Below are positions 30,701-51,055 of a stretch of DNA of 64,000 bases, piece by piece. The stretch lies in contig CAVWLP010000003.1 of the NCBI GenBank assembly GCA_963755915.1, forward strand, positions 768,001-832,000, written 5' to 3'. The position numbers and the translations under genes were made by a program. How positions within the stretch are numbered: the first letter of the stretch is position 1; each line of letters begins with the position of its first letter. This DNA comes from an uncultured Phycisphaerales bacterium (GTDB lineage: Bacteria > Planctomycetota > Phycisphaerae > Tepidisphaerales > Tepidisphaeraceae). The notes under the pieces are model-generated. The model ran no database searches. It had not been told where the DNA came from and saw only the letters and a program-made list of their open reading frames with translations.

Positions 30701-30749
30701 GTTTAGCCGCCCCGCTTGACTTCGGCGAGCTCAGTCGAGCCGCGGGGCG
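30701..30749 (+). repeat. REP-like hairpin with a 24-nt element in its loop (30718-30741)
   Basis: GTTTAGC-CGCCCCGC-TT-[GACTTCGGCGAGCTCAGTCGAGCC]-GCGGGGCG. Confidence 0.85.
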
Positions 30750-30775
30750 TTTCTTCGATCACCCCACAAATCGCT

Positions 30776-31678
30776 CTATTCCCCACTCCCCGTCGGTGGA
30801 GTCGTCCCCTCCGGCTCTTCCTCTTCCACCGTTATCGACTTCAATATATCTTCCGCCGCCGTCTGCCGTCCGATCGCCGCTTTCAGGTTGCTCGTCTTCA
30901 CCCGCGGCTCTCTCTTCTCCTTCACCTTGTTCACCGCCATCTCAATTGGAAGATCGTCCGGAATATAAAGAATCCGCCGGCAGCTCGGACAGAAAACCAG
31001 CTCATCCCGGCTATGCAATTTGTTGTAAACGTCGGTGACCAGGTCCATGTTGCAGACCGAGCAGGCATATTCCTCCCGCCGCCGATCCGGCTTCGTCAGG
31101 GCACTAAGGGCCTCACCCTCAAATCGGTCCCCCAGCCGGTTAAACTCTTCGACCGCCTTCGCCGGAACCGCCGCCGCCGCGGCTTCCCTCGCCGGACGCA
31201 ACGACTCAATCTCCGCCTGCAGTTCCTTAACCCGCCCGTCGATCTCCCCGCGCATCGCCTCCAGCTTGGTGTTCTCCGCAGCGCTGACCTCGGCCAATTC
31301 TTTGACTTCCTTCTGAAACTTCTCCACCCCTTCCATCACCTTCAGCAGCTCTTCCTCGGATTTCCCCTTGTCCACCTTTTCCGTATTGATTTCGACGAGG
31401 AACGCCTGATATTCGCGGTTGGTCTTGGCGTTCTGCTGCTGCGCCCGCAGCCGCTCGATTTTCGCATCCCGCGTTTTCAGGTCCAGGTCAAGCTCGGCAG
31501 ACTTCGCCTGCTGCTCCTTGAGGTTTGCCTGCCCCAGCCGCAGCCGCTCCGACAGATCCGCGACCTTCCGTTCCTGGATGCGGACGTTCTTGCTCACCGC
31601 GTTCAGCCGGCCCTGCGCTTCCCGTAGTTTCTGATCCGCGCGGTACAGGGCAACCAGTGCGACGTTAATTGGACCCAT
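30776..31678 (-). CDS. coiled-coil plus C4 zinc-ribbon protein (DUF164/HP0958-like)
   Basis: Long coiled coil, TNREYQA, CSVC...FCPSCRRILY. Confidence 0.88.
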   Translation of the reverse strand: MGPINVALVALYRADQKLREAQGRLNAVSKNVRIQERKVADLSERLRLGQANLKEQQAKSAELDLDLKTRDAKIERLRAQQQNAKTNREYQAFLVEINTEKVDKGKSEEELLKVMEGVEKFQKEVKELAEVSAAENTKLEAMRGEIDGRVKELQAEIESLRPAREAAAAAVPAKAVEEFNRLGDRFEGEALSALTKPDRRREEYACSVCNMDLVTDVYNKLHSRDELVFCPSCRRILYIPDDLPIEMAVNKVKEKREPRVKTSNLKAAIGRQTAAEDILKSITVEEEEPEGTTPPTGSGE

Positions 31679-31913
31679 AAGGCGATTACCTCTAACGACT
31701 CTAGGCCACATTATGGCGAGAGAGCGGCGATTGCAAAGGGGTCAACAGCAAATCGCCCAACCCGCCAACCACCTTTTGCCCCAACTCCGCCGCATAACTC
31801 CCGAATTTTCGCTACCCTTAGCATCGAATTCAACATTCCACTCTTAAGGCACTGCAACACCAATATCTCCTGAATTCTCTCAGCGATCTCTGCGGTGAAC
31901 TAAGCCTATTTCG

Positions 31914-32939
31914 CTAAGGATTCACAAAACACCCCTGCGCATCCACCGGCCCATCCAGCGTTCCAATCTCAATCAATTGCTCCTGCAAATCCTTCCACCG
32001 ATCCAACGTCATCGTCCCCAGCCCCTGTGCCTTGGTGAGATCGTTTTCAATCAGCGGCTTCTGCGCCGCCGCCGCCTCCCCAAACGTCTGCAAATCCATG
32101 TCCTGGTTCAGCCCATGCATCACCGAATTCACCGGGTCCGGATTCCCCAGATAATCCTTCCACCCCTCCCGGCAAGCCGCCGCCATCGCCTTCACTTCCT
32201 GCGGGTGCGATCGCCACAGCTCCCCTTTGCAGATCAGCAATGTCGCATAAGGATTAAACCCCTCATCCGCGATCAAAAACACCTGCGGATCGCCCCCCTG
32301 GTGCCGCGCCAATATCGGCTCGCTCGTCACATAACACTGCTGCGAATAATCCTTGCTCGCCATAAACTGTGCGATGCCCCCATCATAATTCGCCACCTTC
32401 ACCCTCACCGGCGCGAACCGCTTCTCCAGCAGCGTCAGCCACGCGTTCGGCTCGGCCAGCAGATACCCGTCGCTGTTAAACACATCCGCGATCGAAGTAA
32501 ACCCGCGCGACTCATGCACCATGATCCCCTGCGGAAACGTCTGATACACCGCAAAAATGCCGATCACATCCGCATTCTGCCGGCGGGCGATCAGTACCTG
32601 GTCGGAGGTCGACGTCGCGAATTCCGTCTTTCCCGTCGCCACGAGCTGCCACGTATCCGCCCCTTCCCCGGCCGGCGTGATCGTCACATTCAACCCGTGC
32701 TTGGCAAAAGCCCCATCCTGGCTCGCCGCGTAAAACCCCCCAAACTCCGGCTCCGGTTTCCAGTCGAGCGTCAACTGCACCGCCGTCGCACTGGGAGGCG
32801 TCGCGCTGGGCCGCGTCGCGCTCGACGCGTTTGCATTTGGCCCCGGCGCCGATGAGTCACTCGACGGCGCACTGCTTTTCGCGCACCCGCCGATCAGCAA
32901 CCCGCAGAAAACCACGCCCACCGTCAATCGCCAGATCAT
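31914..32939 (-). CDS. NMT1/THI5-like ABC substrate-binding lipoprotein
   Basis: Lipobox IGGC; LDWKPEPEFGGFYAA. Confidence 0.88.
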   Translation of the reverse strand: MIWRLTVGVVFCGLLIGGCAKSSAPSSDSSAPGPNANASSATRPSATPPSATAVQLTLDWKPEPEFGGFYAASQDGAFAKHGLNVTITPAGEGADTWQLVATGKTEFATSTSDQVLIARRQNADVIGIFAVYQTFPQGIMVHESRGFTSIADVFNSDGYLLAEPNAWLTLLEKRFAPVRVKVANYDGGIAQFMASKDYSQQCYVTSEPILARHQGGDPQVFLIADEGFNPYATLLICKGELWRSHPQEVKAMAAACREGWKDYLGNPDPVNSVMHGLNQDMDLQTFGEAAAAQKPLIENDLTKAQGLGTMTLDRWKDLQEQLIEIGTLDGPVDAQGCFVNP

Positions 32940-32994
32940 TCTCAGCCTTTCCGTCTACCGCACCGCAGTTTATCACGTCGATCGCCAGCGAATT

Positions 32995-33022
32995 GTTTAG
33001 CCGCGACCCGAAGGGAAGCGCG
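32995..33022 (+). repeat. REP-like element (TTAGCCGCGACCCGAAGGGRAGCGCG), copy 1
   Basis: 27/28 identical to 43357-43384. Confidence 0.85.
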
Positions 33023-33066
33023 TCTTACGTTCGCACTCCCATACGCGCCACACGATTCGCAACTGT

Positions 33067-33852
33067 TCATTCATCCAGCTCCGAAGCATGCCAATGGCGA
33101 AGCAGCAGTTTAGCCGCCGCATTTATCGCCGCAAACATCGCCAGCCCCAGCAGCGACGCAATCAGCACCGCCGCGAAAACCAAATCCGTCCGTCCCTGCT
33201 TTTTCGCCGAAACGATCCTCACCCCCAGCCCCTCCCCCGGCCCAAACAGCCCCACCAGAAATTCCCCCACCACCGTCCCAATCACCGCCAGCCCCGCCGC
33301 CACCCGCAGCCCCGTAAAAATGCTCGGCAGGGCGGATGGCAGCTTCAATTTCCATAGCCGCGCCCACCTCCCCGCCCCATACAGCCGAAACAAATCCTCC
33401 AGCGCAGGATCGGTCGACATCATCCCCGCCAGCGTATTGGCGATCACCGGAAACACCGAAACGATAAACGCCGACAGCGCCACCGCCCCCAGCCCCGGCC
33501 CGCACCAGATCATCAGCAGCGGCGCGATCGCCACGATCGGCACCGTCTGAAAAAAAACTGTGTACGGATAAATCGCCCGCCGAACCAGCGGCCACGCCGA
33601 CAAAATCATCCCCGCCCCAACCCCCAAAACCCCGCTCGCGAAAAATCCCATCAGCGCCGCCTCCGTCGTCGTCCAAAGCGACGCCGCCAAATCCCCCCGG
33701 CGCAATATCATCACCCTCGCCACCGCCCCCGGCGTCGGCAGCAAAAATGGCTCGTTCAATGCACTCGCCCCAACATGCAGCGCAATCACCGCGGCGATAA
33801 ACACCACCACCGGCGGCCAAATCGCGCCGAAAATCGATCCCGTTCCCTTCAA
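33067..33852 (-). CDS. NitT/TauT-family ABC permease
   Basis: QTVPIVAIAPL, LPSALPSIFTGLR, GTVVGEF. Confidence 0.92.
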   Translation of the reverse strand: MKGTGSIFGAIWPPVVVFIAAVIALHVGASALNEPFLLPTPGAVARVMILRRGDLAASLWTTTEAALMGFFASGVLGVGAGMILSAWPLVRRAIYPYTVFFQTVPIVAIAPLLMIWCGPGLGAVALSAFIVSVFPVIANTLAGMMSTDPALEDLFRLYGAGRWARLWKLKLPSALPSIFTGLRVAAGLAVIGTVVGEFLVGLFGPGEGLGVRIVSAKKQGRTDLVFAAVLIASLLGLAMFAAINAAAKLLLRHWHASELDE

Positions 33853-34598
33853 GCCTTCCCCCCAGATTCCCCTTTCGCCAGCGCTTCATAAATCTTCCGC
33901 GTAATCCCCCCGAATTCCCCTGACGACCGCACCCCCGCCTCCCGCTTCTCCCCCAGCCCAATCTCAATATCCGCCGCAATCCGCGCCGGCCGGCTCGTCA
34001 GCACCACCGCACGATTCGCCAGAAACGTCGCCTCCGCCGTCGAGTGCGTGACGAAAATCACCGTCATCCGGTGCCGCACCCAAAGATCCCGAAGCTGCTC
34101 ATCCAGCCGCTGCCGCGTGATCTCATCCAGCGCCGCGAACGGCTCATCCAAAAGCAAAATATCCGGCCGCGTCACCAGTGCCCGCGCCAGCGAAACCCGC
34201 ATCTTCATCCCCCCCGAAAGCTGATTCGGAAATCTCTCCAGCGCCTCCTCCAGCCCCACCTGCCCCAGCGCCTCCCGCGCCGACCCAATTCTTTCCGCCT
34301 TCCCCACCCCCATCAATTCCAGCGGCAGCGCCGCATTCCCCACCACGTTCCTCCACGGCAGCAGATGCGCATCCTGAAAAACATAAGCAATCTTCCCCGC
34401 CCCCTTCTCCACGGCCCCATGACTCGCCCGCTCCAGCCCCGCGATAATTCTCAGCAGCGTAGACTTCCCACACCCCGACGGCCCCAGCACCGCCACAAAT
34501 TCCCCATCCCCAATCCCCAGCGACAAATCCTCTATCGCCACCACCCCGTTCTCAAAAACCTTCCGCAAATGATCAATTCGCATCGCCCCGGCGATCAT
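33849..34598 (-). CDS. NitT/TauT-family ABC ATP-binding protein
   Basis: GPSGCGKST, LSGGMKMR, LLDEPFAALD. Confidence 0.94.
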   Translation of the reverse strand: MIAGAMRIDHLRKVFENGVVAIEDLSLGIGDGEFVAVLGPSGCGKSTLLRIIAGLERASHGAVEKGAGKIAYVFQDAHLLPWRNVVGNAALPLELMGVGKAERIGSAREALGQVGLEEALERFPNQLSGGMKMRVSLARALVTRPDILLLDEPFAALDEITRQRLDEQLRDLWVRHRMTVIFVTHSTAEATFLANRAVVLTSRPARIAADIEIGLGEKREAGVRSSGEFGGITRKIYEALAKGESGGKA

Positions 34599-34601
34599 AT
34601 C

Positions 34602-34627
34602 GTGTAGCCGCCGAGCTTGCTCGGCGC
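34602..34627 (+). repeat. GTAG-type REP hairpin with empty loop
   Basis: GTGTAGC-CGCCGAGC-TT-GCTCGGCG. Confidence 0.8.
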
Positions 34628-34800
34628 TCTCCGCACTTTTTCCCCTGTCTTTCCCTGAGCTCGAAACTCCTCAGCGCCTGTCACGGGGCGCGCCAAAACC
34701 AGCCAGGGCGGGGCGCTTCAAAACCGGCCAATGTGCTGACGTATTCTATACCGCATCCGTTCTATCCGACGCAACTGTTCCTTGAGTTATTGGTCCCCGT

Positions 34801-35691
34801 TCACGCCGTCTGGCCGGCGGATACCCCCACATCAGAAGACAACGGCGGCTCTGTCACGGTGTCTTCCGGGGGGGAGCACCCTTCATCGCCGGCGGTACTC
34901 CGCCGTCCTTTTGGATTTGTCTTTTCCGGTGTCCCGGATTGGCCTGCCGTGAGCGAAGTCGAATGGCCCCCATGCCGAAGGCGGTAGCTCTTGCCGGTGA
35001 TGTTGATGATCGTGGCGTGCTGCAGGAACCGATCCAGAATGGCCGTGGCCGCCGGCACGTCGCCGATCAGCTTGGCCCAGTCCTCCAGTGGACGGTTGCT
35101 GGTCATCATCGTCGAGCGGTTCTCGTGCCGGCGCATGACGATCTCCAGCAGGCATTCGCCGCTGCGCCGCGGAAGCTGCTTCATTCCCATGTCGTCGATG
35201 ATAAGCAGATCAGGCTTGAGATACCGGGCCAGCGTCTTGTCCTGGGCTCCCAGATCCTCGTCGCCTAAAAAGTCGCGGGCCAGGTCGAAGATGGATCGGT
35301 ACAGGACCACCAAGCCGCTCTTGATCGCCTGGTGTCCGATGGCCTGGGCCAAAAACGATTTGCCCACGCCGGGCGGACCCAGCAAGAGCACGTCACGTTT
35401 GTCACGAATGAACTGGCCGGCGGCCAGATCGTGAATCTGTTTGCGTTTGATGGAGGTGTTGAAGGAGAAGTCGAACTCGTCGAGGTTTTTGGTGTCGCGG
35501 AACATCGCCGCCTTGACGCGCCGGCCGATCTGCCGGCTGGATCGGACGTTCAGTTCATCCTGAAGGATCAGTTCCAAAAACTCACTGTGGTCGAGCCGAT
35601 TGCCGGCCGCCTCGCTCAGGCGAACTTCAAGGCTGCTCGCCAGACCTGAAAGCCGAAGTTGCTTGAGCGTCTGCATCAACGAAGGTCTCAT
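34801..35691 (-). CDS. istB: IS21 helper ATPase
   Basis: GPPGVGKS, LLIIDDMG, TSNR, AILDRFL, GKSYRL. Confidence 0.96.
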   Translation of the reverse strand: MRPSLMQTLKQLRLSGLASSLEVRLSEAAGNRLDHSEFLELILQDELNVRSSRQIGRRVKAAMFRDTKNLDEFDFSFNTSIKRKQIHDLAAGQFIRDKRDVLLLGPPGVGKSFLAQAIGHQAIKSGLVVLYRSIFDLARDFLGDEDLGAQDKTLARYLKPDLLIIDDMGMKQLPRRSGECLLEIVMRRHENRSTMMTSNRPLEDWAKLIGDVPAATAILDRFLQHATIINITGKSYRLRHGGHSTSLTAGQSGTPEKTNPKGRRSTAGDEGCSPPEDTVTEPPLSSDVGVSAGQTA

Positions 35692-37373
35692 GGGGTGGAC
35701 TCCCTTCGGCTCTGCTCAGGGCAGGCCTGTAAAGGTTGTGCGGCAGGCAAAGCCTCCGCTTGGGTGATTGCGTCGCGTACGAACTGTCCGTAATCGGCCA
35801 GTCCGCGGATGATTGGATGTTCCTGAACAAACTCGAAGTGTTGTTGAACCGGCGCGCCGTTTTGGTGTTCGATGAGCTGCCGCAGGGAGCGCAGGTGATA
35901 CGCGCCATGCCCCAGAGCAATCTCGCAGGCTCGTTCCACGGCCGGTCGCGGCTGCTGATTGGCCAGCGACAGCAGCCCCATCAACACGCGCACGCCTTCG
36001 ATGCCGCGATGCTGAAGCATTGACTGCGCCCACTGCGTGGCGTGCGGCCCGATGCATTCGATCCGCTGGAGAAGCCAGGTCGTTCCACGCTCGATGCCGC
36101 TGATCTTCTCCGGCAGGATATGGGCGTCTTGCGTCGAGAACCTGCCCGGCGGACGCTGCGCGTGCAGAGCGATCGCACGCATCTTCTGATCGAACAGCCG
36201 GACCGTGCGCCCGTCCCACCGCGCCCAGACCCGCTGGCCCAAAAACTCCGGCGGGACCGAATAGTACGCCCCCTTGATCTCCACGTGCCCGTCGCGGTGA
36301 ACACTGCGCAACGCCTCGGTGAAAAGATCGAATCGCACCGGCGGCAGAGCCAACAGTGCCGGCTTCTCTACCTGCTCGAAGACTTCCTTCACCTGCCGCC
36401 GCGTCGTGCCGTGGATGCGCGTGTCGGCCACGCTCTTCTCCCACGTCAGCAGATGCGCGTTCTGATCCGAGAGCGAGGCGAATTGCCGGCCTTTGAGAGC
36501 ATTGCTCTTCACATAGCCGATGCCCCGCTCGATCTTCCCCTTGTGCCGCGGCGTGTACGGCTTGGTGGGCAGAATGGCGATTCCATAATGTTCGGCGAAC
36601 GACCGGACCTTGGGACACAACTCCGCCTCGAACCAGTCCGCCCGCGTCACCGCCGCGCGAAGATTGTCGATCACCAGCGCTGACGGCATCCCGCCGAAGT
36701 GCGTAAAGGCATTTTCCAGACAACGCAGAAAATCATCGGTCGTCTGCCGCTCCACCGCCTCGGCGTACCCCTTGCGGCTGTGGCTCAGCACAATGCGGAA
36801 GACCCAGGTTGCTTTGCGTTTGCCGTCAGGACCGACCAGGGGCGCACCCCGGCCGAAGTCCACCTGCCCTCGGCTCCCGGCTCGCATTCCATCCGGCGCA
36901 CGCTGTAATAGCTGCCGGCATAGCCGTGATCGCTGGAGATGTCTTGATAAATCCGCTGGGCCGTCAGCCCGGCTTCCAACTTCTGAACAATGACCTCACG
37001 CCAGGGCGATGCCGTACTGACCGACCCGATGGGCGCGCCGGATAACCCGGTGGGCGCGCTCTCCGAGCCGCCTGCGGCGAGCACCGTCGAGCCGCCTGCG
37101 GCGAGCACCGTCGAGCCGCCTGCGGCGAGCACCGTCGAGCCGCCTGCGGCGAGCACCGTCGAGCCGCCTGCGGCGAGCACCGTCGAGCCGAGGGGCGCGC
37201 TGGCCGGTTTTGAATCCGATCCGGGCACCGCAGGATCGCCGCCCGACAACCGGATGTGGCGTCCAACGGTCTCCCGGTGAACGCCGAGTTGGCGGGCGAT
37301 GTTCCGATTGGACCAGCCGCTGCGCAAGTGCCAAAATTGCTTGTACTTCCGCCATCTTGAGTTGATTGGCCAT
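35688..37373 (-). CDS. istA: IS21 transposase (frameshifts ~37325 and ~36875; 24-nt repeat insertions)
   Basis: N-terminal HTH (IARQLGVHRETV), QVDFG, DNL, KGKIER, RIHGTT. Confidence 0.92.
37070..37189 (+). repeat. 5 perfect tandem copies of the 24-mer GCCTGCGGCGAGCACCGTCGAGCC
   Basis: Direct reading; encodes (GSTVLAAG)5 in istA. Confidence 0.97.
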
Positions 37374-37572
37374 CCCACCATTGGCTTGCGGCAACCGCCG
37401 AAAGCCAAGGTCGATAACCCAATCTCCTGTGCCTCAAAATGGCCGGTTTTGGCGCGCCCTCAATTGGCCGGTTTTGCGCCCCATGACACAGCGCCCCGCC
37501 GCCGAAAGCACCGGAGGTGCTTGGGCGGTACTCCGCGAAACGTGGGCCGGAGGCCGTCCCTAACTTCTCCCC

Positions 37573-37622
37573 GTGTAGCCGCCGTGCTTGACTTCGGTGA
37601 GCTGTCTCGAACCGCACGGCGC
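37573..37622 (+). repeat. GTAG-type REP with a 24-nt element in its loop (37590-37613)
   Basis: GTGTAGC-CGCCGTGC-TT-[GACTTCGGTGAGCTGTCTCGAACC]-GCACGGCG. Confidence 0.85.
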
Positions 37623-37859
37623 TTTCCCGCCAAATACCTCAAGGCCGCCCCCGACCGTCACAAGGCCAGCCAAGTGCCACCGCGGCGGAACCGCGTTTTA
37701 TATTCGAGTCAACGCCTCTTCTCGTCCCCCAAACCATAACCGAAAATACTCTTCCTTCTTTTTACGATGTAAATCCGACCGCTTCGCTCCAATAAATGTG
37801 GGGAATCCCACTCATAAATTCTTCCTCTTTCTTGGCATCTTGGCGTCTTCTATGAGCCG

Positions 37860-38060
37860 AGCCTTGTCAAGGGGCGTTGATCGCTCATGCGGTCGATTGG
37901 GTGAGCCTTCTATTCAGTGCTCTCGCCTGGCGGCGGGCCTATTCAACTGTACAAATGGCCAGCCCTATTCTTAGCGGCAAGCTTTGAAGCTTAAGACGCC
38001 AACCGGGGTCTGGCCTTGCTCATTCAACCTGCACGAACGCGTCAATTCCACTTCACTTCA
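37860..38060 (-). ncRNA. putative bridge/seek RNA of the IS110 element
   Basis: Internal loop with guides matching both halves of the insertion site (37993-38002 and 37970-37977); RNA ends uncertain. Confidence 0.8.
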
Positions 38061-38175
38061 ACTCTACTCAATCCCCTGCACAGAAGACAACGGCTTTCTG
38101 ACACGGTGTCTTCCGGAGGGGAGATACTCCATCGCCTGTACCGACTTGTCGGGACAGTCATCGCCTTTTCGATTT

Positions 38176-39219
38176 TCAAGTGGCCGCCGTCAGCGATCGC
38201 TGGGGTTCTCTCCATCGGGTTCCGTCCCGCAGCATCGCCCACAGCTTCACCAGTAATCTCCTGGCTACCGCAACAATCGCGATCTTCTTGCGCTTCTCGC
38301 TGTCACGTAGAACCCTCTCGTACACGTCCTTCATCCACGTATTGCGATGAACCCCCAGCCACGCCACCTCCACCAGCAACTCCCGCAGCAGCGCGTTGCC
38401 TGCCTTGCTGATCCGCCCCTGGCGATCGCTGTCGCCGCTCTGCCAGCGCCGCGGCGTCAGACCCACGTAACATCCCACCTGACGTGCATTCTTGAATCGC
38501 CTGGGATCATCAATGATCACCGCCACCGCCTCGCTCAGCCGCGGACCAACGCCGGGCACCTCCTGCAATCGTTTCACCGCTTTGTTGGCCTGGCCCAACT
38601 CCTGAAGCTTGCTTTCGACAGTTTCGATCTGCTTCTCCAGGTGCTCCAGTTGCGCCACCTCACAACCGATCTGAAACAGCCACAGATCTTCCGCCGATGC
38701 GGCCGCTGCTTCCTTCCTCATTTCCTCCAGTCGCGCTTTCGTCCACGCCTTGGTCGCCGAGGGCAAATACAAACCCTGCCGCTCGTAGATTGATCGGATC
38801 GAGTTCTTGAGCGCCGTGCGGCGATCCACCAGGCCGTGTCTGTATTCAATCAATGAACGCCACTGCCGAACCGATGCCTTGGGCACGTGCACCGTCGGCA
38901 GCGAATCCATCTCCGACATCGCCGCCATCTTCAGCGCGTCTTTACGATCACTCTTCTCCTTCACCGTCTTCCAGCGCCAGCGTTCATCGTTGCCATTGGC
39001 CACCTGGACGGGAACATTGTTCCGCTCCGCCAGATCACAAACCCATCCTGCCGCCGGACCGGCCTCGATGACCAGTCGATCCGGACGCACCCGCTCGAGT
39101 AGTTTTTGCACCTCGTGGGCATTGGTGCCGATCTTGCCGAACGTTCTTTCTCCACCGCCGGTGACATAATCCACAAAAACGCTCTTGTTCTTTCCCAGGT
39201 CCAAAGCGAGAATTCGCAT
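38176..39219 (-). CDS. IS110-family recombinase/transposase
   Basis: DEDD residues (ALDLG, VIEAG, KSDRKDA), VPGVG, YVGLTP, WQSG catalytic-Ser motif, KIAIVAVARRL. Confidence 0.96.
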   Translation of the reverse strand: MRILALDLGKNKSVFVDYVTGGGERTFGKIGTNAHEVQKLLERVRPDRLVIEAGPAAGWVCDLAERNNVPVQVANGNDERWRWKTVKEKSDRKDALKMAAMSEMDSLPTVHVPKASVRQWRSLIEYRHGLVDRRTALKNSIRSIYERQGLYLPSATKAWTKARLEEMRKEAAAASAEDLWLFQIGCEVAQLEHLEKQIETVESKLQELGQANKAVKRLQEVPGVGPRLSEAVAVIIDDPRRFKNARQVGCYVGLTPRRWQSGDSDRQGRISKAGNALLRELLVEVAWLGVHRNTWMKDVYERVLRDSEKRKKIAIVAVARRLLVKLWAMLRDGTRWREPQRSLTAAT

Positions 39220-42391: not shown

Positions 42392-43338
42392 TCATTTCGC
42401 CAGCTCGGCTAGAAGCCGGAATTTCAATTCGTTGTGCTCGTAGGCCACCTCGTGCCCGTGAAACGGATAAACCTCCATCTGTTTCTCCGCCGTGATGTGA
42501 TTGTAGACACCGTAGATGGAGCTTGGCGGGCAGATATTATCCCACAAGCCATTGGAAATGACGGTTTTGCAGGCAATCCACGGGGCAAGATTCAGGCAAT
42601 CAAAATAACTCAGCGTCCGCAGCGCCTCTTCATATAGATGGGGAAACGAACGTAGAAAGCCGGTGATTTCCGGATACGGCCCCGCCGCCGCGATATTAAT
42701 CGACCGGCGGAAGTCGCACAGAAATGGAATGTCCGAAAGCGCCAGCACCGGCTTTCGCGACAGCGCCGCCACCGCCAGCGTAAGGCCCCCACCCTGGCTG
42801 ACACCCGCAATCGCGATCCGCGCCGAATCGGTTTCATCCCGCCGCGCCAGCACTTCCAGTGCCCGCACCGCATCCGCGTAAACATTGCGGTAGTAATAGG
42901 TCCGCGGATCGCGAATCCCCGCGGTCATCCACCCCATGTGATGCCCCTCGGGATAGACGGCCGTGTCCTGCGACTGCCCGTTCTGTCCCCGGCAATCCAT
43001 GCTCAGCACGCACATTCCCTGGGCGGCAAACGGAATCAGATCCAGCGGCCGCGGCGCCCGCCCGCTATACCCGTGATAGACGCACAGCCCCGGAAATTTC
43101 CCCCGCGAATCCGGCCGCAGAAACCACCCCGCCAGCCGCCCGCCCCCAAACCCCTCAAACCGCACCGCAAAACATTCGATCCCCCGCGCCGCAGATCGTA
43201 AGGAATCAGCTCCGCATTCAGCGGCTGCTTGTCCGACTGCGAAAGAGTCGCCTCCCAAAACGTCTGAAAATCTTCCGCACGGTACAGCGCGGGCTTATAC
43301 ACCCGAAGCTGCTCAAGAGGCATGTCGATAGAAGGCAT
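42392..43338 (-). CDS. acetylxylan esterase / cephalosporin-C deacetylase (CE7; frameshift ~43180)
   Basis: DMPLEQLR..Y, DFQTFW, HGY, RGQ, GVSQGGG, CPPSS, GHE. Confidence 0.92.
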
Positions 43339-43356
43339 AGGATGGAAATTCTTCCC

Positions 43357-43384
43357 GTTTAGCCGCGACCCGAAGGGGAGCGCG
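43357..43384 (+). repeat. REP-like element, copy 2 of 32995-33022
   Basis: GTTTAGCCGCGACCCGAAGGGGAGCGCG. Confidence 0.85.
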
Positions 43385-43429
43385 TTATTCGTCCTTCGAG
43401 AAACGCTCCGCGATCATTCTGAAGCGATC

Positions 43430-45112
43430 TCAATTGAAAGTCAAAACCAGCAACGAAACACCCTGCCGCGGCAGATGAATTTGGAGGGAAACTGCACCGT
43501 GGTCAACGAGCACCACCCGCGGATCCCCCATCGTCTGCAACCTTCCCGCCGATTGCAGCGCCGCGTATTGCTCCCGCGTCGGAGGTTGCGGCGACCCCAT
43601 CTGAATCCACGCCGCGTATGCGTTGCTGTGCGACGGATCGATTCGATATTCCGTCACGTGCGCCATCGAAGCCGTCGCCGGAAGATTTGCCAGCGTCATC
43701 TGAACCTCCGCCGCCGGCCCGGGAAGATCGTCATCATGATAGTTCCACGTCAGTACCTCCATCCGATCCCCCGAAATCGTTGCAATCGAGCTCACATCCG
43801 GAGAAGTACGCACTCCGGACTTTTCGACAAACGCCAGCGGCTGCGCCGACGAGCTCTCCACAGCCACCCGGTTGCCATCCATCTTCGCCAGCATCCGAAA
43901 CACATTGAGCACGGGAAGATCGATACCATTCGTCGAAAGAACGCGGTAACCGGCGAAATAAAGTTTGCCTTCAAATTCGAATGCCCAAGTAAGCGCCCCC
44001 AGCAGATTAATCCCGCGCTTGTCGGCAATCATCAGCGTGTGGGCAACCGCCGCCGCCGTATACGAAGCGTAAAGCGTCGAGTTCCGATAGTTAAGCTGCG
44101 GCCCCGTGCAGGCCGCACACCCGTCCGGATCCGATTCCCCGATCACGATCGGCGTATTCTTGAACTGCGGAAACGAGGCAACGGTGGAAAACCCCGACTC
44201 AATATTGTTGAGCTGATTCGACAGCCCCATTCGCACGTGCCCGTCGAGAAACCGCGGCGACCCCTTGGCATGAAACGAAATGAAATCCAGCGGCGCGCCA
44301 TTTTTTCCCGTCGCCTCGTTCGCCCCATCCACGCAGTGTTGTAAAAACGCATGAAGATATTTCCCCCCACCCCCCGCCTGTTCCGGACCGCCCACCCGCG
44401 CCGTCGGCAGCGCCCGCCTCACCCCATCGACCGCATAATCATACAGCTTGAAATACTCCTCCGCCGTCCCGTTCCAGTAGCTGATGTTGGGCTCGTTCCA
44501 CACTTCCCAATACCAGCTCTGCACCTCCGATTTTCCATACCGCGCGATGCAATGGCTCACCCACTGATAAACCAGCTCCCGCCACTTGTTGAAATCCTTC
44601 GGCGGATACGCCTGCCCCCCCGCAACCGGCGTCGGCTTGTTCGGATCGAACGATGTCGGATAAAGATCCGGCCGAACCGTTAGATCCTTCGGCATGAATC
44701 CAATCTGCGCATAAGGCTTCAGCCCGCGCTGCACATACGTGTCAAAAATCCGATCCAGAATCGTCCAGTTGTAAACCGGATTCCCCTGAGCATCCTCCGT
44801 ATACGCGTTCGTCGAGCTCCACTTCAGCGCCGGAATCCCGTCGCCCGAAGTCAGCAGATGATGGCACCGAACATAAACCTGCGGCGGCTGAAGCTCCGAA
44901 AGCTCCGACAGAAGCTGCTGCCCGCCCGGCATAAACGTGAAGTCCGCCTCGTCATATCCGAAAAATCGCCAGATCGGTTTCCACGGGCCAAGAGTTCGCG
45001 AAGCGTTGATGTGAATCGAAACCGGCAAATCCGCCTGGGTGGCAGGCGCATCCGCGCGAACGACGCGGCAAATCACCACAAGCAGCAGCGCAATGGAAGC
45101 CCGTTTGGTCAT
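43430..45112 (-). CDS. GH39 beta-xylosidase
   Basis: Signal peptide; WEVWNEPN, DFISFH, IGESDP, HSNAY. Confidence 0.9.
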   Translation of the reverse strand: MTKRASIALLLVVICRVVRADAPATQADLPVSIHINASRTLGPWKPIWRFFGYDEADFTFMPGGQQLLSELSELQPPQVYVRCHHLLTSGDGIPALKWSSTNAYTEDAQGNPVYNWTILDRIFDTYVQRGLKPYAQIGFMPKDLTVRPDLYPTSFDPNKPTPVAGGQAYPPKDFNKWRELVYQWVSHCIARYGKSEVQSWYWEVWNEPNISYWNGTAEEYFKLYDYAVDGVRRALPTARVGGPEQAGGGGKYLHAFLQHCVDGANEATGKNGAPLDFISFHAKGSPRFLDGHVRMGLSNQLNNIESGFSTVASFPQFKNTPIVIGESDPDGCAACTGPQLNYRNSTLYASYTAAAVAHTLMIADKRGINLLGALTWAFEFEGKLYFAGYRVLSTNGIDLPVLNVFRMLAKMDGNRVAVESSSAQPLAFVEKSGVRTSPDVSSIATISGDRMEVLTWNYHDDDLPGPAAEVQMTLANLPATASMAHVTEYRIDPSHSNAYAAWIQMGSPQPPTREQYAALQSAGRLQTMGDPRVVLVDHGAVSLQIHLPRQGVSLLVLTFN

Positions 45113-45151
45113 ATCGGCTGGTCGATGGAAATGATAACCGCAATCGCGGCG

Positions 45152-45541
45152 TCAGGCGCGATGGGCGTTGGCTGTCCGCATTTTCTTCGGATCCACGATC
45201 TGAACAAAATCCGCCGCCAGCGCGAATTCCCCGTGTTTTCCCCGCATGCACCGCGTCACCCGGCATCGAATGAAAAGGTCCGGCCCTTCGCGCACGGGGA
45301 TGCTAAGCAGAAAACTCGAGAACGGCATCAGCGCCTGCGGCGCCGACATCCCGGCCGTCTCCGCGGAAATGTCCTTAAGCGTGACATGAATTCCAGTTCC
45401 GATCAGCTCGTCCTCGATCGGAAAAATCATTGCCGGGGTTTGCAGCTCGATCCGCCCCAGCGCGCGCTTATGCCCCGACCCGGAAAATCGCGCCACCGGA
45501 CGGTCGATGATCTGCAGGAGGATTTTCACGGGCAAACGCAT
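45152..45541 (-). CDS. PilZ-like domain protein
   Basis: RxxxR (RALGR) and a degenerate DxSxxG (DISAETAG); beta-rich C-terminus CRVTRC. Confidence 0.65.
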   Translation of the reverse strand: MRLPVKILLQIIDRPVARFSGSGHKRALGRIELQTPAMIFPIEDELIGTGIHVTLKDISAETAGMSAPQALMPFSSFLLSIPVREGPDLFIRCRVTRCMRGKHGEFALAADFVQIVDPKKMRTANAHRA

Positions 45542-45617
45542 AAAGCCGTACAGGAGTTATCGGCTGGAAACCGCCCGACTGAAAAAGCCTTCTCGCCAAT
45601 TCCAAATTTCCCGCTAA

Positions 45618-46367
45618 TTACCGGAACAAGCGCTCCGGCGGGCTGATCCGCACGTCCTTCAACCCTGCCGAATATTGAGCGCAGCACGGATTGCAGAGCG
45701 GCAAATTCCCCAGCAAATCGCGGCACAGAATCGAAATCTCCGCGCCAATCTGCCGCCACGGCTCATGCGAAATCCGAAACCGCCGCAGCGTCCCCTTGCG
45801 AAACGTAAACGCACAATATCGCTCGATCAGAAATTCCGTCTCCGACCCCGCCTCCGCTCGCGATGCGCACTCCTCAGTATTCCATCTCGCCATGCAGGAA
45901 AATTCCCCGTCCCCCACCACCCGCCGAATCCCCCAACCCGCCGCCGTCTCATACGCCATCTCCGCCAGCTTATACGGCAGCCCATACAGCCGCGGCCCCA
46001 GAAAAACCGCCAGCGGATTCGGAATCCACTCCGCAAGAAAATAAATCCCCGGCTCACCCTCATGCATGACATACGTCCGCAGATTGAGAAACTCGTGCGT
46101 CGCCAGCGGCCGGCTCAGAAATTCGGGCACCCCAATCGCCGGCCGAAGCCGACGCTGCGTGAAAGCGACAAGACTTACATATGCGCAACCGTTGTACAGA
46201 TCGAGCCGCACCGGCATCATCGCTTCCAGCACGGCAGGATCAAGCCGAAAATGAATAAACAACGCATCCCGCCAATCCGCCACAAACAGCGCCCTATTAT
46301 TGTTACTCTTGTCATTTCCCCTCCCCTGGTACGCCGGGGGAGGGTATGGGTGGGGGCTGGTTCTCAT
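45618..46367 (-). CDS. DUF2071/YqjF-family protein
   Basis: WRDALFIHF, FLNLRTYV, PGIYFL, FLIERY, HEPW. Confidence 0.88.
   Translation of the reverse strand: MRTSPHPYPPPAYQGRGNDKSNNNRALFVADWRDALFIHFRLDPAVLEAMMPVRLDLYNGCAYVSLVAFTQRRLRPAIGVPEFLSRPLATHEFLNLRTYVMHEGEPGIYFLAEWIPNPLAVFLGPRLYGLPYKLAEMAYETAAGWGIRRVVGDGEFSCMARWNTEECASRAEAGSETEFLIERYCAFTFRKGTLRRFRISHEPWRQIGAEISILCRDLLGNLPLCNPCCAQYSAGLKDVRISPPERLFR
46317..46356 (+). repeat. 40-nt palindromic repeat, copy 2 of 24434-24473
   Basis: TCCCCTCCCCTGGTACGCCGGGGGAGGGTATGGGTGGGGG. Confidence 0.8.
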
Positions 46368-46492
46368 GTGAGACTCTCGACTGCATATTCAGATTCACTC
46401 CCGCCCAGTTCAAGCGCCGCTGCATTCTTTCAAAACTTTCATCCGTAGAATCAAACCGTGAAAGTTCCCCGCCCGGCAGTACAATCGCCCCC

Positions 46493-47974
46493 ATGAACCA
46501 CCGGCACGTGCTCAGAGGGTTTCTCGTTCTCACTATTTTTTTTTCAGCATGCACCAGCAAACCCGCCCCCAAGGCCATCAAACCATCCGAGCCTGCGATG
46601 AGCACACCACCCGCCCCACTGCCCTACGTCGTCGTCCAATCCCCAACGACCAAACCAATTCTTGAGCGCAACGAAACCCCCGACCAGCACAACGCCCGCA
46701 TGGCCTGGTGGCGCGCCGCTCGATTCGGAATGTTCATCCACTGGGGAATCTATTCCGTCCCCGCCGGCACCTATCACGGCCAGCGCGTCGCCGGCATCGG
46801 CGAATGGATCATGAACAACGCCTCCATCCCCGTGGCCGAATACGCCTCCTACGCCAACGATTTCACCGCCTCCAATTTCGACGCGGATGAATGGGTCTCC
46901 ATCGCCAAAAACGCCGGCATGAAATACATCGTCATCACTTCCAAGCACCACGACGGCTTCGCGATGTTCCACACCAAGGTCGACAGCTTCAACGTCTACG
47001 ACGCCACCCCCTTCCATCGCGACCCCCTCGCCGAACTCGCCGCCGCCTGCCAGCGCCAGGGAATCAAGCTCGGCTTCTACTACTCCCAGTGCCAGGACTG
47101 GCACCACCCCGGTGGTTACGCCATCAAAACCCACAACCGCACCGCCGAACACTGGGATCCCGCCCAGGAAGGCGACTACGACGCCTACCTCAACAACGTC
47201 GCCGTCCCCCAGGTCCGCGAAATCCTCTCCAACTACGGCCCCATCGCCGTCCTCTGGTTCGACACCGCCCGCGACATGACCCCCGACCGCGCCGAACGAT
47301 TCCTCTCCCTCCTCAGCCTCCAGCCCGACATCATCGTCAACAACCGCCTCGGCGGCGGATTCCGCGGCGACACCGAAACCCCCGAACAGCACATCCCCCC
47401 GCAAGGCTACCCCGGCCGCGACTGGGAAACCTGCATGACCATCAACGACACCTGGGGATATAAATCCTACGATACCGATTTCAAATCCACCGAAACCCTC
47501 CTCCACAACCTCGTCGACATCGCCAGCAAAGGGGGCAACTACCTCCTCAACGTCGGCCCCACCAGCCAGGGCGTCATCCCCCAACCCGAAGTCGATCGCC
47601 TCAAAGCCATCGGCGCGTGGCTGCAGATCAACGGCGAATCCATCTATGGAACCCAGGGCACCCCCTTCGGCGCCGAGGCCGGTCACTTTGACCCCGAGAA
47701 AAAAGACAAGCACGGCAAACCCATCTACGTCACCACCTGGGACTGGCGCTGCACCACCAAACCCGGCAAGCTCTTCATTCACCTGCTACGCTGGCCAAGC
47801 CCCACCTTCCAGCTCACCGGCGTCAAAGGAAAAATCACCCGCGCCTATCTCCTCGCCGATCCCCAGCAAACCAGTCTCGACGTTCTGCAGAATGCCGATT
47901 ACGTTTCGGTCGGTTTACCCCCCGCGCCGCCGGATAATCTGGATTCCGTACTCGTCCTGGAAACCCAGGACTGA
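46493..47974 (+). CDS. GH29 alpha-L-fucosidase (probable lipoprotein)
   Basis: ARFGMFIHWG, TSKHHDGF, LWFD, WETCMT, LLNVGP. Confidence 0.94.
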   Translation: MNHRHVLRGFLVLTIFFSACTSKPAPKAIKPSEPAMSTPPAPLPYVVVQSPTTKPILERNETPDQHNARMAWWRAARFGMFIHWGIYSVPAGTYHGQRVAGIGEWIMNNASIPVAEYASYANDFTASNFDADEWVSIAKNAGMKYIVITSKHHDGFAMFHTKVDSFNVYDATPFHRDPLAELAAACQRQGIKLGFYYSQCQDWHHPGGYAIKTHNRTAEHWDPAQEGDYDAYLNNVAVPQVREILSNYGPIAVLWFDTARDMTPDRAERFLSLLSLQPDIIVNNRLGGGFRGDTETPEQHIPPQGYPGRDWETCMTINDTWGYKSYDTDFKSTETLLHNLVDIASKGGNYLLNVGPTSQGVIPQPEVDRLKAIGAWLQINGESIYGTQGTPFGAEAGHFDPEKKDKHGKPIYVTTWDWRCTTKPGKLFIHLLRWPSPTFQLTGVKGKITRAYLLADPQQTSLDVLQNADYVSVGLPPAPPDNLDSVLVLETQD

Positions 47975-48129
47975 ATGTCGCAATACCTCCTCCACCCGTC
48001 GCATTCCGACTACGAAAATTCCAAAGAAATCCCACAAAGCCCACGCAATTCTGTTGCGATTCTGCACCGCTACAACTTATATATCCTGTTGTCGAATTGA
48101 ACAAAACTGCTCATTCGGGAGGGCCTCGT

Positions 48130-50391
48130 ATGTTGCGAAAGATCACCGTCCCGGCGCTTTCCCCAGCGATCTCCATTGCCACCCTGTTCATCAGCCGCGC
48201 ATTTGCCACTGACTGGTCCTACCTTTCCCAGGGGTCCTTGGCGACCGAACTCACCGGCGGATACGGCGCCGTCGCCGACCCCTCCGACGGAAGCGTCTAT
48301 AACGATGGCGAAGGCGACTACAGCTATCCCGTCATCCTCGATTCCGGGTCCAGCGGCTTCCTCATGAGCCAAACCGTCACCGACGAATTCAACGTCCCGC
48401 TCCAGAGCGGACAAACCTACACCGAAACCGGCATCGGCGGCTCCGAAGTCGAAAACGTCACCGAGCCCCTCATCTCTTATTACGCCCCCGCCAGCGATAC
48501 GAACCCCGATGAAACGTCCACCATGACCGCCTACGGCACCTACACCTTCGAGTCGCGTCAGAGCGATCCCTTCGAGGGGTTCATCTACTTCGACATCATC
48601 GGTACGCCCGTCATTCAAAAGCAGGTGATGGTCGCCAACCCCAACCAGTCATACAACATCGTCCAGGACACCCTCGGCTTCCTCACCGCCGAAACCACCT
48701 TGCAGGCCTCCGATCCGGTTTTGCCTTCCAAGGGCCTCTATCACGTCCCCATCACCTGGACCAACTTCGTCACCGGACCCACCGTTCCCAGCGAAGCCGC
48801 CAATCCCGTCGTCAACGGCGTCACTGCCCGCGGCCCCAGCGATACCGACGTCGCCAACAACTGGCTTTTCGACTCCGGCGCCCAGTTCACCATCATCAGC
48901 CCAACCTACGCCGCTCAGTTGGGCATTAACATGAACGACCCCACCACAACCATTCAGGGCCAGGGCGTCGGTGGATCCACCGTCACTTTCGACGGATTCC
49001 AGATCACCGACATCGCCCTTCCCCTCAGCAACGGCGATCGCCTCGTGTTTAAGGATCCCACCGTCTACGTTCCCGTCGACACGACACTCCCGGCCGGGCT
49101 TACCGGTGTTCTCGGTGAAAACCTCTTTATGCAGGCCACCGATGGGATCGACCCCTACACCGGTGAACCGACGGACACCTACAATCCGCTCTTCTCTGAG
49201 TGGTACCTCGACGGCCCGGGCAGCCAACTCGTCCTTTACGATCCCAACAGCACCTACAACGCCCTCGGCGCTGTCAGCACCACGATCGTCTGGAACAACG
49301 CCGGCGGCCCCGGTGATGGCCATACCTGGGACATCGCCCTCAGCGAAAACTGGAACGCCTCCTCCGCCCTCGCGGTCTACTCCGACGGCGACAGTGTCAT
49401 TTTCAACGACAGCAACAGCGGTAATTATGCCGTCACCCTCAGCACCACCGTCAGCCCCGCCTCCGTGATGGTCAACAACAGCAACGGCAATTACATCTTC
49501 AGCGGCTCCGGCAGCATCGCCGGCACCGGCTCCCTCACCAAAACGGGCACCGGCAACCTCACCCTCGCCACCGCAAACACTTACAGCGGTGGAACCACCG
49601 TCAGCGCCGGAACCCTCTTCGTCGCCGTCAACAACGCCCTTCCCAGCGGCGGAAAAATCTCCGTCAACGGCGGAAACGTCATCCTCGCCGCTGCCCTCAG
49701 CGCCGGCGCCACCGCCATCACCGCCGGCGAAATCCAACTCACCCCCGGTTTAACCCTCGGCAGCGGCGCAACCGCCAGCAACGTCAATTTCGCCTCCCTC
49801 TCCATCACCGGCAATGGCGTCCTGGACCTGACCAACAATCACATCATCATCAGCTACCAGGGTGGTTCCGATCCAATCGCAACCATCGCCTCGTATATTG
49901 CCTCCGGCTACAACAAAGGCCACTGGAACGGACCCGGGATCATCTCCTCGACCGCACGAACGCCAACCAACGGCCTTCTTTACGGCCTCGGCTATGCCGA
50001 CGGCAACGACTTCGTCGTCAAAGGCCTGGCATCCGGATATATCGAAATCAAATACACCCTCTTAGGCGACGCCAACCTCGACGGCGTCGTCAACGGCGCC
50101 GACTTCTCCATCCTCGCCGCCAACTTCGGCCTTGGCGCAACCAACTGGGACCAGGGCAATTTCCTCTACGGCCCCTCCGTCAACGGCGCCGACTTCGCCG
50201 CCCTCGCCGCCAACTTCGGCCAGGGCGACAGCGGCGCCGACCTCACCGGCGATCTCGCCGCCCTCCAGGCCTTCGCCGCCGCCAACGGCCTGCTCGCCGA
50301 TCTCCCCGAACCAGGCTGCTTAAGCATCCTCGCCTTCGCCGGCGCCCTGACGCTTCGCCGAACCAGGGCCAGAGCCGCGCATTTCCAGTAA
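48130..50391 (+). CDS. aspartic-protease-like domain plus beta-strand repeat, dockerin-like domain and PEP-CTERM
   Basis: ILDSGSS...IIG and LFDSGAQ...VLG motifs; GSLTKTGTGNLTL; GDANLDG; LPEP plus TM. Confidence 0.82.
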   Translation: MLRKITVPALSPAISIATLFISRAFATDWSYLSQGSLATELTGGYGAVADPSDGSVYNDGEGDYSYPVILDSGSSGFLMSQTVTDEFNVPLQSGQTYTETGIGGSEVENVTEPLISYYAPASDTNPDETSTMTAYGTYTFESRQSDPFEGFIYFDIIGTPVIQKQVMVANPNQSYNIVQDTLGFLTAETTLQASDPVLPSKGLYHVPITWTNFVTGPTVPSEAANPVVNGVTARGPSDTDVANNWLFDSGAQFTIISPTYAAQLGINMNDPTTTIQGQGVGGSTVTFDGFQITDIALPLSNGDRLVFKDPTVYVPVDTTLPAGLTGVLGENLFMQATDGIDPYTGEPTDTYNPLFSEWYLDGPGSQLVLYDPNSTYNALGAVSTTIVWNNAGGPGDGHTWDIALSENWNASSALAVYSDGDSVIFNDSNSGNYAVTLSTTVSPASVMVNNSNGNYIFSGSGSIAGTGSLTKTGTGNLTLATANTYSGGTTVSAGTLFVAVNNALPSGGKISVNGGNVILAAALSAGATAITAGEIQLTPGLTLGSGATASNVNFASLSITGNGVLDLTNNHIIISYQGGSDPIATIASYIASGYNKGHWNGPGIISSTARTPTNGLLYGLGYADGNDFVVKGLASGYIEIKYTLLGDANLDGVVNGADFSILAANFGLGATNWDQGNFLYGPSVNGADFAALAANFGQGDSGADLTGDLAALQAFAAANGLLADLPEPGCLSILAFAGALTLRRTRARAAHFQ

Positions 50392-50400
50392 TATCCACGA

Positions 50401-50988
50401 ATGCCCAAACCCAACCCCAGGCTCGACCCCTTCTTCAAAAACGCCAAAAAATGGCGCGAAGAACAACAGCGGCTGCGAAAAATCGTCCTCGCCTGCCCCC
50501 TTAACGAAGACATGAAATGGGGCCAACCCTGCTACACGAGTGAAGACAAAAACATCGTCATCATCCACGCCTTCAAGGAATACTGCGCCCTCCTCTTCTT
50601 CAAAGGCGTCCTGTTAAAAGACCCCAAGCGCATCCTCATCCAGCAAACCGAAAACGTCCAATCCGGACGGCAGATCCGTTTCACCAACCTCGATCAAATC
50701 GTCAAACTCGCGTCCACTTTAAAGGCCTATGTTCTCGAAGCCATCGAAGTAGAAAAATCCGGCTTGAAAGTGAAGAAAAAACAGACCTCCGATTTCAAAG
50801 TCCCCGAAGAATTCCAGGCCAGGTTGGACGAACTCCCCGCCCTGAAAGCCGCCTTCAACGCCCTCACCCCCGGCCGCCAGAGAGGCTACCTCCATTTTTT
50901 TTCCAGCGCCAAACAATCCCAAACCCGCGCCGCGAGGGTCGAAAAATATCTGAAGCAAATCCTCAGCGGAAAAGGTTTGGACGATTAG
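50401..50988 (+). CDS. YdeI/OmpD-associated family protein
   Basis: KWGQPCY, LLFFKG.LLKDP, LTPGRQRGY, AKQSQTR. Confidence 0.92.
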   Translation: MPKPNPRLDPFFKNAKKWREEQQRLRKIVLACPLNEDMKWGQPCYTSEDKNIVIIHAFKEYCALLFFKGVLLKDPKRILIQQTENVQSGRQIRFTNLDQIVKLASTLKAYVLEAIEVEKSGLKVKKKQTSDFKVPEEFQARLDELPALKAAFNALTPGRQRGYLHFFSSAKQSQTRAARVEKYLKQILSGKGLDD

Positions 50989-51001
50989 CGCAGTGCCGCC
51001 G

Positions 51002-51055
51002 GACTTCGGCGAGCTCTCTTCGAGCCTGAGCCTCAGAGCCGAAGGCAGTCGTGCC
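51002..51055 (+). repeat. 24-nt element carrying a nested 30-nt palindrome
   Basis: GACTTCGGCGAGCT-[CTCTTCGAGCCTGAGCCTCAGAGCCGAAGG]-CAGTCGTGCC. Confidence 0.78.

Follow-up and report, generated by a model that had tools for sequence, protein, structure and literature searches.

The window analysed here is a stretch of 64,000 nucleotides from an uncultured soil planctomycete of the Phycisphaerales (G000:C3:768001-832000, where G000 stands for the 6.63-Mb genome and C1, C2, and C3 for its three contigs). Six sites in this window, s1 to s6, carry copies of a very small repeated module that has a main form of 24 nt. We use U as the name for that main 24-nt module, GACTTCGGCGAGCTCAGTCGAGCC, as it appears at s1. 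A sequence-only reading of the window had proposed ten such units at the six sites, and described them as a family of exactly 24-nt palindromic elements that insert precisely and in frame. By direct reading, all ten units are real. The positions it gave stand for s1, s4, s5, and s6, but s2 and s3 fit best when shifted by 1 nt, and s3 reads on the minus strand. The features, in positions of the window, are the following.

30718-30741, plus strand: site s1, an exact U with the tail GACTTC, in the loop of a hairpin that resembles a repetitive extragenic palindrome (REP), in the order ..TTAGCCGCCCCGCTT, U, GCGGGGCG..
34679-37489, minus strand: an insertion sequence (IS) of the IS21 family, with istA at 37408..35688 and istB at 35691..34801; it carries s2, s3, and s4.
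34942-34965, plus strand: site s2, GCCTGC CGT GA GCGAAGTC GA ATG, then G, in the C-terminal tail of the istB open reading frame (ORF).
35703-35726, minus strand: site s3, GCCTGC CCT GA GCAGAGCC GA AGG, then G, at the C-terminus of IstA.
37070-37189, plus strand: site s4, 5 perfect tandem copies of the GCCTGC-tailed unit GCCTGCGGCGAGCACCGTCGAGCC.
37590-37613, plus strand: site s5, a diverged module, GACTTCGGTGAGCTGTCTCGAACC, with 5 mismatches to U.
51002-51055, plus strand: site s6, three nested layers consisting of a host hairpin, U (1 mismatch), and a 30-nt element.
51017-51046, plus strand: the 30-nt element, TCTTCGAGCCTGAGCCTCAGAGCCGAAGGC, which sits between U bases 15 and 16 at s6.

Three of the six sites are in hairpins that can be found elsewhere in the same genome without the unit. 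The s1 hairpin, placed between convergent ORFs, has an empty-like paralogue at C3:1177857-1177884 (96% over 28 nt spanning the junction), and the host hairpin is also found empty at ~C2:3002500. At s5 the host is a REP hairpin with the tag GTAG (GTAGCCGCCGTGCTT, unit, GCACGGCG), which holds the unit in its loop and heads a repeat of ~200 bp; this REP is empty at C2:3689581-3689628, with 100% identity over 48 nt spanning the junction, and the host hairpin occurs in G000 in four places empty and in seven filled. At s6, the host hairpin (GTGCCGCCG .. GTGTCCTCACCGGCGG) contains U in two parts, 51002-51016 and 51047-51055, and empty copies of this host exist, for instance at C2:2973468-2973502. The claim that deleting 24 nt restores a sensible host sequence is borne out at s1, s5, and s6, but not at s2, s3, and s4, as no IS copy in G000 lacks any of these three by precise absence.

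All units are built on a common grammar. A tail of 6 nt, either GACTTC or GCCTGC, is followed by a 3-bp stem, GA, GC-nnn-G(T/C)C, GA, and the closing stem, and the next base is a G. This is a tail plus a short imperfect hairpin, and "palindromic" does not describe it. Uninterrupted copies of U in the genome, leaving out the array units, number 20 exact, 27 with up to 1 mismatch, 43 with up to 2, 58 with up to 3, and 72 with up to 4, while the reversed U and five shuffled patterns all give 0 copies at up to 4 mismatches. The 20 exact copies are found in at least nine unrelated flank families. U leaves five of the six reading frames open, and its 24 nt amount to eight codons.

The core GAGCnnnGTCGA occurs 350 times in the genome, and in 277 of those occurrences there are three pairable bases on either side; three scrambled cores have pairable flanks in 2 of 42, 1 of 104, and 9 of 178 occurrences. 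The base 3′ of the unit is G in 272 of the 277 grammar-matching units, and the tail is GCCTGC in 203 of them and GACTTC in 58. For the stem formed by positions 7-9 and 22-24, an alignment of nine variants has all 27 of its 27 cells paired, with compensatory changes in all 3 pairs; none of 500 shuffles reaches that level, and structures slid along the unit reach 4-44%. The nine variants were hand-picked, and the unbiased figure is the genome-wide count of 277 out of 350.

The length of exactly 24 nt holds for the main family, but relatives of 26, 30, and 32 nt exist as well. The 30-nt element found at s6 has 16 exact genome copies and 33 with up to 7 mismatches, against 0 for the reversed pattern. 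Its grammar is that of the U family (CCT GA GC..GCC GA AGG), and its copies sit in another REP family, in U, and in one another. A 26-nt variant, in which the GC of the loop is duplicated, is limited to one host repeat (..CGCGGATG/..), at G000:C1:33313, C2:2457107, C3:216726, C3:219169, and C3:219252. Its existence means that the length is not a multiple of three in every member of the family.

Most of the G000 copies are in repeat hairpins downstream of genes, and the orientation of the units shows no pattern with respect to replication in G000, where the GC skew is too noisy. As a side observation, hairpins bearing the module recur 3′ of the stop codons of large, PEP-CTERM-tailed surface-protein paralogues (G000:C2:856676-858073 and four other loci).

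How precise is the presence or absence of the module? For 66 of 79 units (taken at up to 5 mismatches), we find an empty-like paralogue, that is, the joined 30-nt flanks match somewhere else in the genome, ungapped across the junction. In a stricter test, a block is removed and the resulting 11+11-nt junction is sought exactly elsewhere in the genome. With a block of length 24 and a shift of 0 or +1 (where +1 is the ambiguous G), the junction is restored for 23 of 72 units. Lengths of 15-23, 25-30, and 32-33 restore 0 of 72, length 31 restores 1 of 72, and other shifts restore between 0 and 3 of 72.

The same exactness is observed between orthologues. The sister genome G001 has ~90% identity to G000. 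At C3:426283/426364 and at C2:858093/858174, two filled loci that sit between conserved genes, both arms of an inverted repeat are filled in G000, and each arm is missing exactly 24 nt in G001, for 4 units in all. The unit at C2:3505384 is common to both genomes. Moreover, the unit at C3:219317 in G000 has a 30-mer nested in it, and the orthologous G001 unit is without the 30-mer. At s1, the orthologous spacer in G001 is occupied by other repeats and does not offer a clean filled/empty comparison. Among paralogues and against G001 alike, the junctions show no target duplication beyond one ambiguous G, in agreement with the sequence-only reading.

U is not confined to this genome. At up to 2 mismatches, it is found in 13 of 18 other genomes of the same family, and in 0 of 12 genomes from the class's other families, and the reversed control has no hits (here and below, tallies of relatives include the unpublished genome G014, on which no conclusion depends). 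The exact 24-mer is present in at least 119 loci of a species collection, in many phyla, and in 10 viral-contig loci. Among the matches listed, record titles name Planctomycetota, Chloroflexota, Nitrospirota, Nitrospinota, Acidobacteriota, Verrucomicrobiota, Desulfobacterota, Bdellovibrionota, Latescibacterota, Omnitrophota, Tectomicrobia, Methylomirabilis, and one archaeal metagenome-assembled genome, and in 117 of these 119 copies the next base is G. The bases of the variable loop are also identical across phyla. U is found nested in U at several positions, and in other small elements.

Insertion into genes, in frame, was part of the original proposal, and it is seen in other phyla. Nine ORFs were taken from the 25 longest ORFs spanning a copy, and all nine have Pfam domains: penicillin amidase, AddB-like nuclease, GAF/PAS histidine kinase, photolyase, PurH, MacB-type permease, pyruvate kinase, esterase/lyase, and O-antigen ligase. 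Four different frames or orientations of the module are used across these nine ORFs. In the pyruvate kinase, it falls within a 16-residue insertion relative to the chain 2e28_A.

We propose that the units are very small, non-coding, and non-autonomous DNA modules, with a main member of 24 nt, that are moved as an exact block. We assign to this reading a probability of about 0.65. Exact gain or loss of a block is well supported for the dispersed copies, and not for the three sites borne by the IS; that the blocks move, and in which direction (gain or loss), we infer. Each module joins a conserved single-stranded tail of 6 nt to an imperfect hairpin of 18 nt, which is built from the covarying 3-bp stem, two G-A/A-G steps that do not vary, GC-nnn-GTC, and the closing stem. 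It would be added or removed directly 5′ of a G, which is equivalent to a block of 23 nt plus a one-base duplication of the G, with no other target duplication. In G000 the module is mostly located in the loops of REP-type hairpins or in their vicinity, and elsewhere also in other modules and in genes. The block would move as DNA through an enzyme acting in trans that recognizes the tail and the hairpin, probably on single-stranded DNA, and horizontal transfer would keep the sequence identical across phyla. Sites s1, s5, and s6 would then be insertions in REP hairpins.

Several observations weigh against this proposal. No movement has been observed, and gain cannot be separated from loss without an outgroup. 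Contigs from four soil runs (X1-X4; 37480-57400 of the window) break at repeats; they show no polymorphism, and neither at s5 nor at s6 do they contain an empty or a filled allele. Folded by itself, the 24-mer forms a weak structure (-3 kcal/mol, z -0.08), and its minimum-energy fold differs from the covarying stem. There are variants private to a host, such as 8 copies of one variant with 4 mismatches, all of them in hosts of the GTAG REP type; filled copies of one host family often share such private variants, so part of the copy number reflects the host spreading together with its passenger, or gene conversion. Finally, only 12 of the 119 cross-phylum copies (among the matches listed) have perfectly complementary flanks of at least 6 bp, compared to 1 of 165 in the control. 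Complementary flanks being so few, hairpin loops are a preference and not a rule.

One alternative is that the 24-mer is not mobile at all, and is instead a conserved binding site, or an RNA or DNA structural signal, that rides in REPs or by gene conversion, with constraint as the reason for the identity across phyla. An invariant GA..GA core, a conserved tail, and a covarying stem are what one would expect of such a signal; most G000 copies sit in repeat hairpins downstream of genes; host-specific variants exist; and in inverted repeat pairs both arms carry the module at once, a pattern expected from conversion. Against it, the same exact 24-mer appears in at least nine unrelated host families, U is nested in itself at different positions, and even the variable loop bases do not change from phylum to phylum. 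It is also hard to picture a signal shared by the coding regions of unrelated enzymes, where the module is read in four frames or orientations. We regard a purely functional motif as unlikely.

If the module is mobile, which enzyme moves it? The window offers no candidate, as the sequence-only reading stated: it contains no GIY-YIG and no HUH (Y1) gene. Of the genes beside units in G000, only the PEP-CTERM surface-protein paralogues recur, and those are not mobilisers. Our leading candidate, a tentative one, is a UPF0213-like GIY-YIG nuclease of 101 aa. Its gene (G000:C1:84953-85255) is the sole small GIY-YIG gene in the genome. The protein matches the Pfam GIY-YIG family (PF01541) with an E-value of 1.7e-12, its nearest solved relatives are the UPF0213 proteins 1zg2 and 1ywl, and NCBIfam has no family for it. 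The gene lies ~100 nt past a tRNA-Ala, behind an inverted pair of GCCTGC-tailed hairpins that conform to the module grammar (C1:84765-85255). These hairpins are the closest relative of s2, from which they differ mainly by a longer loop.

The arrangement is found beyond this genome. At 35 loci of GIY-YIG homologues (L120, L156-L189) from several phyla, a hairpin with the module grammar is present at 18, and in 15 of 35 it lies at most 300 nt upstream of the gene; 11 of those 15 loci are mutually close relatives, which leaves about six independent lineages. The homologue lies just after a tRNA-Ala (12 loci, three different anticodons), a tmRNA (8), a tRNA-Val (2), or a tRNA-Asn (1) in 23 of the 35. 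The locus has the look of a small cassette aimed at the 3′ end of tRNA-Ala-like genes.

There is also evidence against this nuclease as the mobiliser. Using a profile from 24 homologues, 0 of the 119 U loci (among the matches listed) have such a gene within 2 kb, and in G000 the 3 kb on either side of every GIY-YIG and Y1 gene contain no U. The co-occurrence is weak, with a homologue in 8 of 14 genomes with U and in 5 of 17 without. And the tails of the adjoining hairpins are GCCTGC, not GACTTC as in the abundant family.

One can go further, into what we consider doubtful ground, and imagine a pan-bacterial mobile system of which the 24-mer and its relatives of 26-32 nt are the dispersed copies without a gene. 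The hairpin-bounded GIY-YIG cassette of ~100 aa would be its autonomous member, homing to the 3′ end of tRNA-Ala-like genes, tmRNA included. Next to a G, the nuclease would cleave single-stranded DNA and insert the tail plus hairpin; moves between phyla would take place partly on phages; and proteins would steadily gain loops of eight residues, and REP hairpins and insertion sequences would be remodelled.

Alternatively, the module could be mobile, and the mover an HUH (Y1) single-strand transposase of the kind found in IS200-IS605 elements or in REP-associated tyrosine transposases (RAYT). An unpaired conserved tail with an imperfect hairpin, and insertion at a fixed base without duplication, resemble REP/RAYT and IS200/IS605 ends. 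In G000, Y1_Tnp genes are present at two places, C3:1125127 and C3:576500; the REPs that flank the second belong to a family that also hosts the module. Those REPs, at C3:576175-576207 and 576796-576827, are empty, and no module is within 3 kb of either Y1 gene; the module tail is neither GTAG nor CGTC. On these data from G000, a Y1 enzyme is an improbable mover.

As an observation in its own right, the region C3:576175-576827 holds a RAYT-like Y1_Tnp gene with REPs on both sides (..CTGCGG/GTCGCGGCTAAAC..) that belong to a family with >50 members; here a planctomycete has the classical arrangement of REPs and RAYT.

The three sites carried by the IS21 element require a different treatment. The element has Pfam matches to IstB_IS21 (residues 8-240 of 296), to rve and Mu-transpos_C_2, and to HTH_23, and the genome has 27 copies of it over 2.5 kb with >90% identity. 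Site s2 comes directly past the IstB domain. Site s3 provides eight in-frame codons (ACPEQSRR), 12 nt ahead of the overlap between the istA stop and the istB start. For s4, Tandem Repeats Finder reports a period of 24, 5.3 copies, and a 100% match; its unit is identical to U in 20 of 24 positions, and on the minus strand the array reads (GSTVLAAG)x5, between the helix-turn-helix and the catalytic domains of IstA. The istA frames are broken in every IS copy, which may be due to 1-nt assembly errors. In line with this, comparison of the assembly with short-read contigs of the four soil runs shows numerous 1-nt indels (for example at 40062, 40793, and 54274 of the window, in the covered region 37480-57400), and the assembly probably carries frame-breaking homopolymer errors.

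All 31 exact genome copies of s2 are within IS copies, and no more are found up to 4 mismatches; s3 has 29 exact copies, and likewise no more up to 4 mismatches. The genome has 30 s4 arrays, of 1, 3, 4, 5, 6, 7, 8, 10, or 12 units, for a total of 172 units, and the array is bordered by a 6-nt direct repeat, CGAGCC. One IS copy does not have the array, having lost 142 nt by a deletion between GGGCGCGC direct repeats and not by precise excision. The IS relatives elsewhere are distant: the closest have at most 80% identity in any aligned part, only one is full length (75%), and the boundaries of the sites are blurred. That full-length relative, in G058, has s3 and about two degenerate s4 units, while s2 is absent as a 33-nt gap. 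A relative in G034 has a gap at the s3 position, and in an IS variant of G000 (C2:1959455, 76% identical) the exact s3 position is taken by another hairpin of 24 nt. Variants of the s4 unit with the GCCTGC tail are also found in hairpin repeats of G004 and G061.

Because s3 and s4 are already present in a 75%-identical relative, they are old, and we interpret s2, s3, and s4 as old insertions carried by the IS21 element, with s4 probably expanded and contracted later by slippage. Their multiplicity comes from IS21 transposition and not from movement of the module, with slippage added for s4, which is a copy-number-variable repeat of the slippage type, that is, a variable number tandem repeat (VNTR). 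The sequence-only reading is partly supported: the dispersed copies bear out exact presence and absence, and the three IS sites, the array among them, do not.

Another reading, in which the blocks are no elements but arise as side effects when hairpins are replicated or repaired (template switching, slippage), and only the five-unit array needs explaining, finds support in the 1-12 units among IS copies, in the flanking CGAGCC repeat, and in the GGGCGCGC deletion, but it is very improbable, since template switching copies local sequence, while here the same 24 letters stand at unrelated sites in many phyla and junctions are restored only at length 24. It is contradicted for the dispersed copies, and stands only for the changes in s4 copy number.

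The IS21 element has other small irregularities. A 20-nt hairpin, GCGGCAGGCAAAGCCTCCGC, at window positions 35741-35760 belongs to 21 bases that two IS variants lack. The 24-nt hairpin that fills the s3 position in the C2:1959455 variant is closely related to it, so the istA/istB junction collects different small hairpins. The regions C2:1970690-1972061 and C2:2638470-2639841 are identical 1.37-kb deletion derivatives of the IS21 element with istB only, in which s3 is joined to the last array unit at a GAGC microhomology.

How does the module compare with systems already described? The closest described kind seems to be the small dispersed repeats (SDR1-8) of heterocyst-forming cyanobacteria, Nostoc and its relatives, which Elhai et al. 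reportedly described in 2008 as repeats of 21-27 nt. SDRs are reportedly dispersed, nested in other repeats and in each other, present or absent exactly and without target duplication, and predicted to form a hairpin, with a mobiliser that is reportedly not known. The module is like them in size class (24 nt), in dispersal, in nesting (U in U, the 30-mer, s6), in exact presence and absence without duplication, and in the hairpin; the host phylum differs. The sequence-only reading had placed the novelty in precise insertion, for which the SDRs, as reported, are a precedent. What is new with respect to the SDRs are the letter-perfect copies in many phyla and in viral contigs, the GA..GA grammar with a covarying stem, the rule of the G, the filling of both arms, and the in-frame copies in housekeeping enzymes.

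Rickettsia palindromic elements are ~100-150 bp long, reportedly restricted to the genus, and lie in frame inside protein genes, where they are translated. The module is also in frame in protein-coding genes, but it is 24 nt long and spans phyla. Unlike miniature inverted-repeat transposable elements, the 24-mer has no terminal inverted repeats, and no target-site duplication beyond one ambiguous G. The array at s4, with identical 24-nt units in 1-12 copies among IS copies, is like a VNTR or minisatellite, except that its unit is not a local sequence and belongs to a dispersed family (same core, with tail variants in G004 and G061).

REPs and REPINs, which go with RAYT transposases, have a GTAG or CGTC tag next to the palindrome (PMC3733652). 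They share with the module a hairpin with an unpaired conserved tail, a high copy number, a mostly intergenic location, and inverted pairs (PMC3116915, PMC3733652). The hosts at s1 and s5 are themselves REP-like, and the s5 host is GTAG-tagged; the module is a passenger inside REPs, and not a REP. Relative to REP/RAYT as so described, the tail of the module is GACTTC or GCCTGC and not GTAG/CGTC, no RAYT gene is flanked by the module, and the module is also found in genes.

The Ssn proteins are GIY-YIG single-strand nucleases associated with NTS/SRM hairpin repeats (Chenal et al. 2025, PMC11893778). Like the GIY-YIG locus described above, the Ssn system has a small GIY-YIG gene with adjoining hairpin repeats, and the same type of hairpin dispersed in the genome. 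The SRM search pattern as given there (PMC11893778) does not match at s1-s6 or at the hairpins upstream of the GIY-YIG gene. The Ssn clade is cd10448; the nearest solved relatives of the 101-aa protein are UPF0213 proteins. The sections of PMC11893778 consulted do not report exact insertions of Ssn repeats in genes. A literature search using pieces of the 24-mer sequence returned only an unrelated match.

If they are truly mobile, these modules would rank with the smallest transposable units known; they fall well short of the length assumed to be required for two ends recognized by an enzyme, and distant phyla share them letter for letter. They would explain common odd inserts of eight residues and spurious repeat peptides in predicted proteins, and they would be a ready source of variation in protein loops. 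They would also point to a hairpin-specific DNA enzyme with possible use as a tool. With exact empty/filled pairs and the rule of the G, the question of how SDRs move can now be tested directly with defined oligonucleotides.

Some minor observations in the window remain. Two matches that resemble the grammar, at 14116-14153, overlap a 15-nt coding tandem repeat; their tails differ, one of them has an unusual following base, and they are probably due to chance. Rfam has no match in the window at gathering scores, and none in 30500-38000 at E ≤ 1. The REP at s5 is followed, at 37620-37780, by a repeat of ~160-200 bp with 48 BLAST matches in the genome (72-87% identical), for which a small RNA gene or a miniature element are possibilities. 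Upstream of s5, at 37510-37556, there is a short repeat (accggaggtgcttgggcggtactccgcg...ggccggaggccgt); at C2:1384382, this same repeat is inserted in a REP hairpin that elsewhere hosts the 24-mer.

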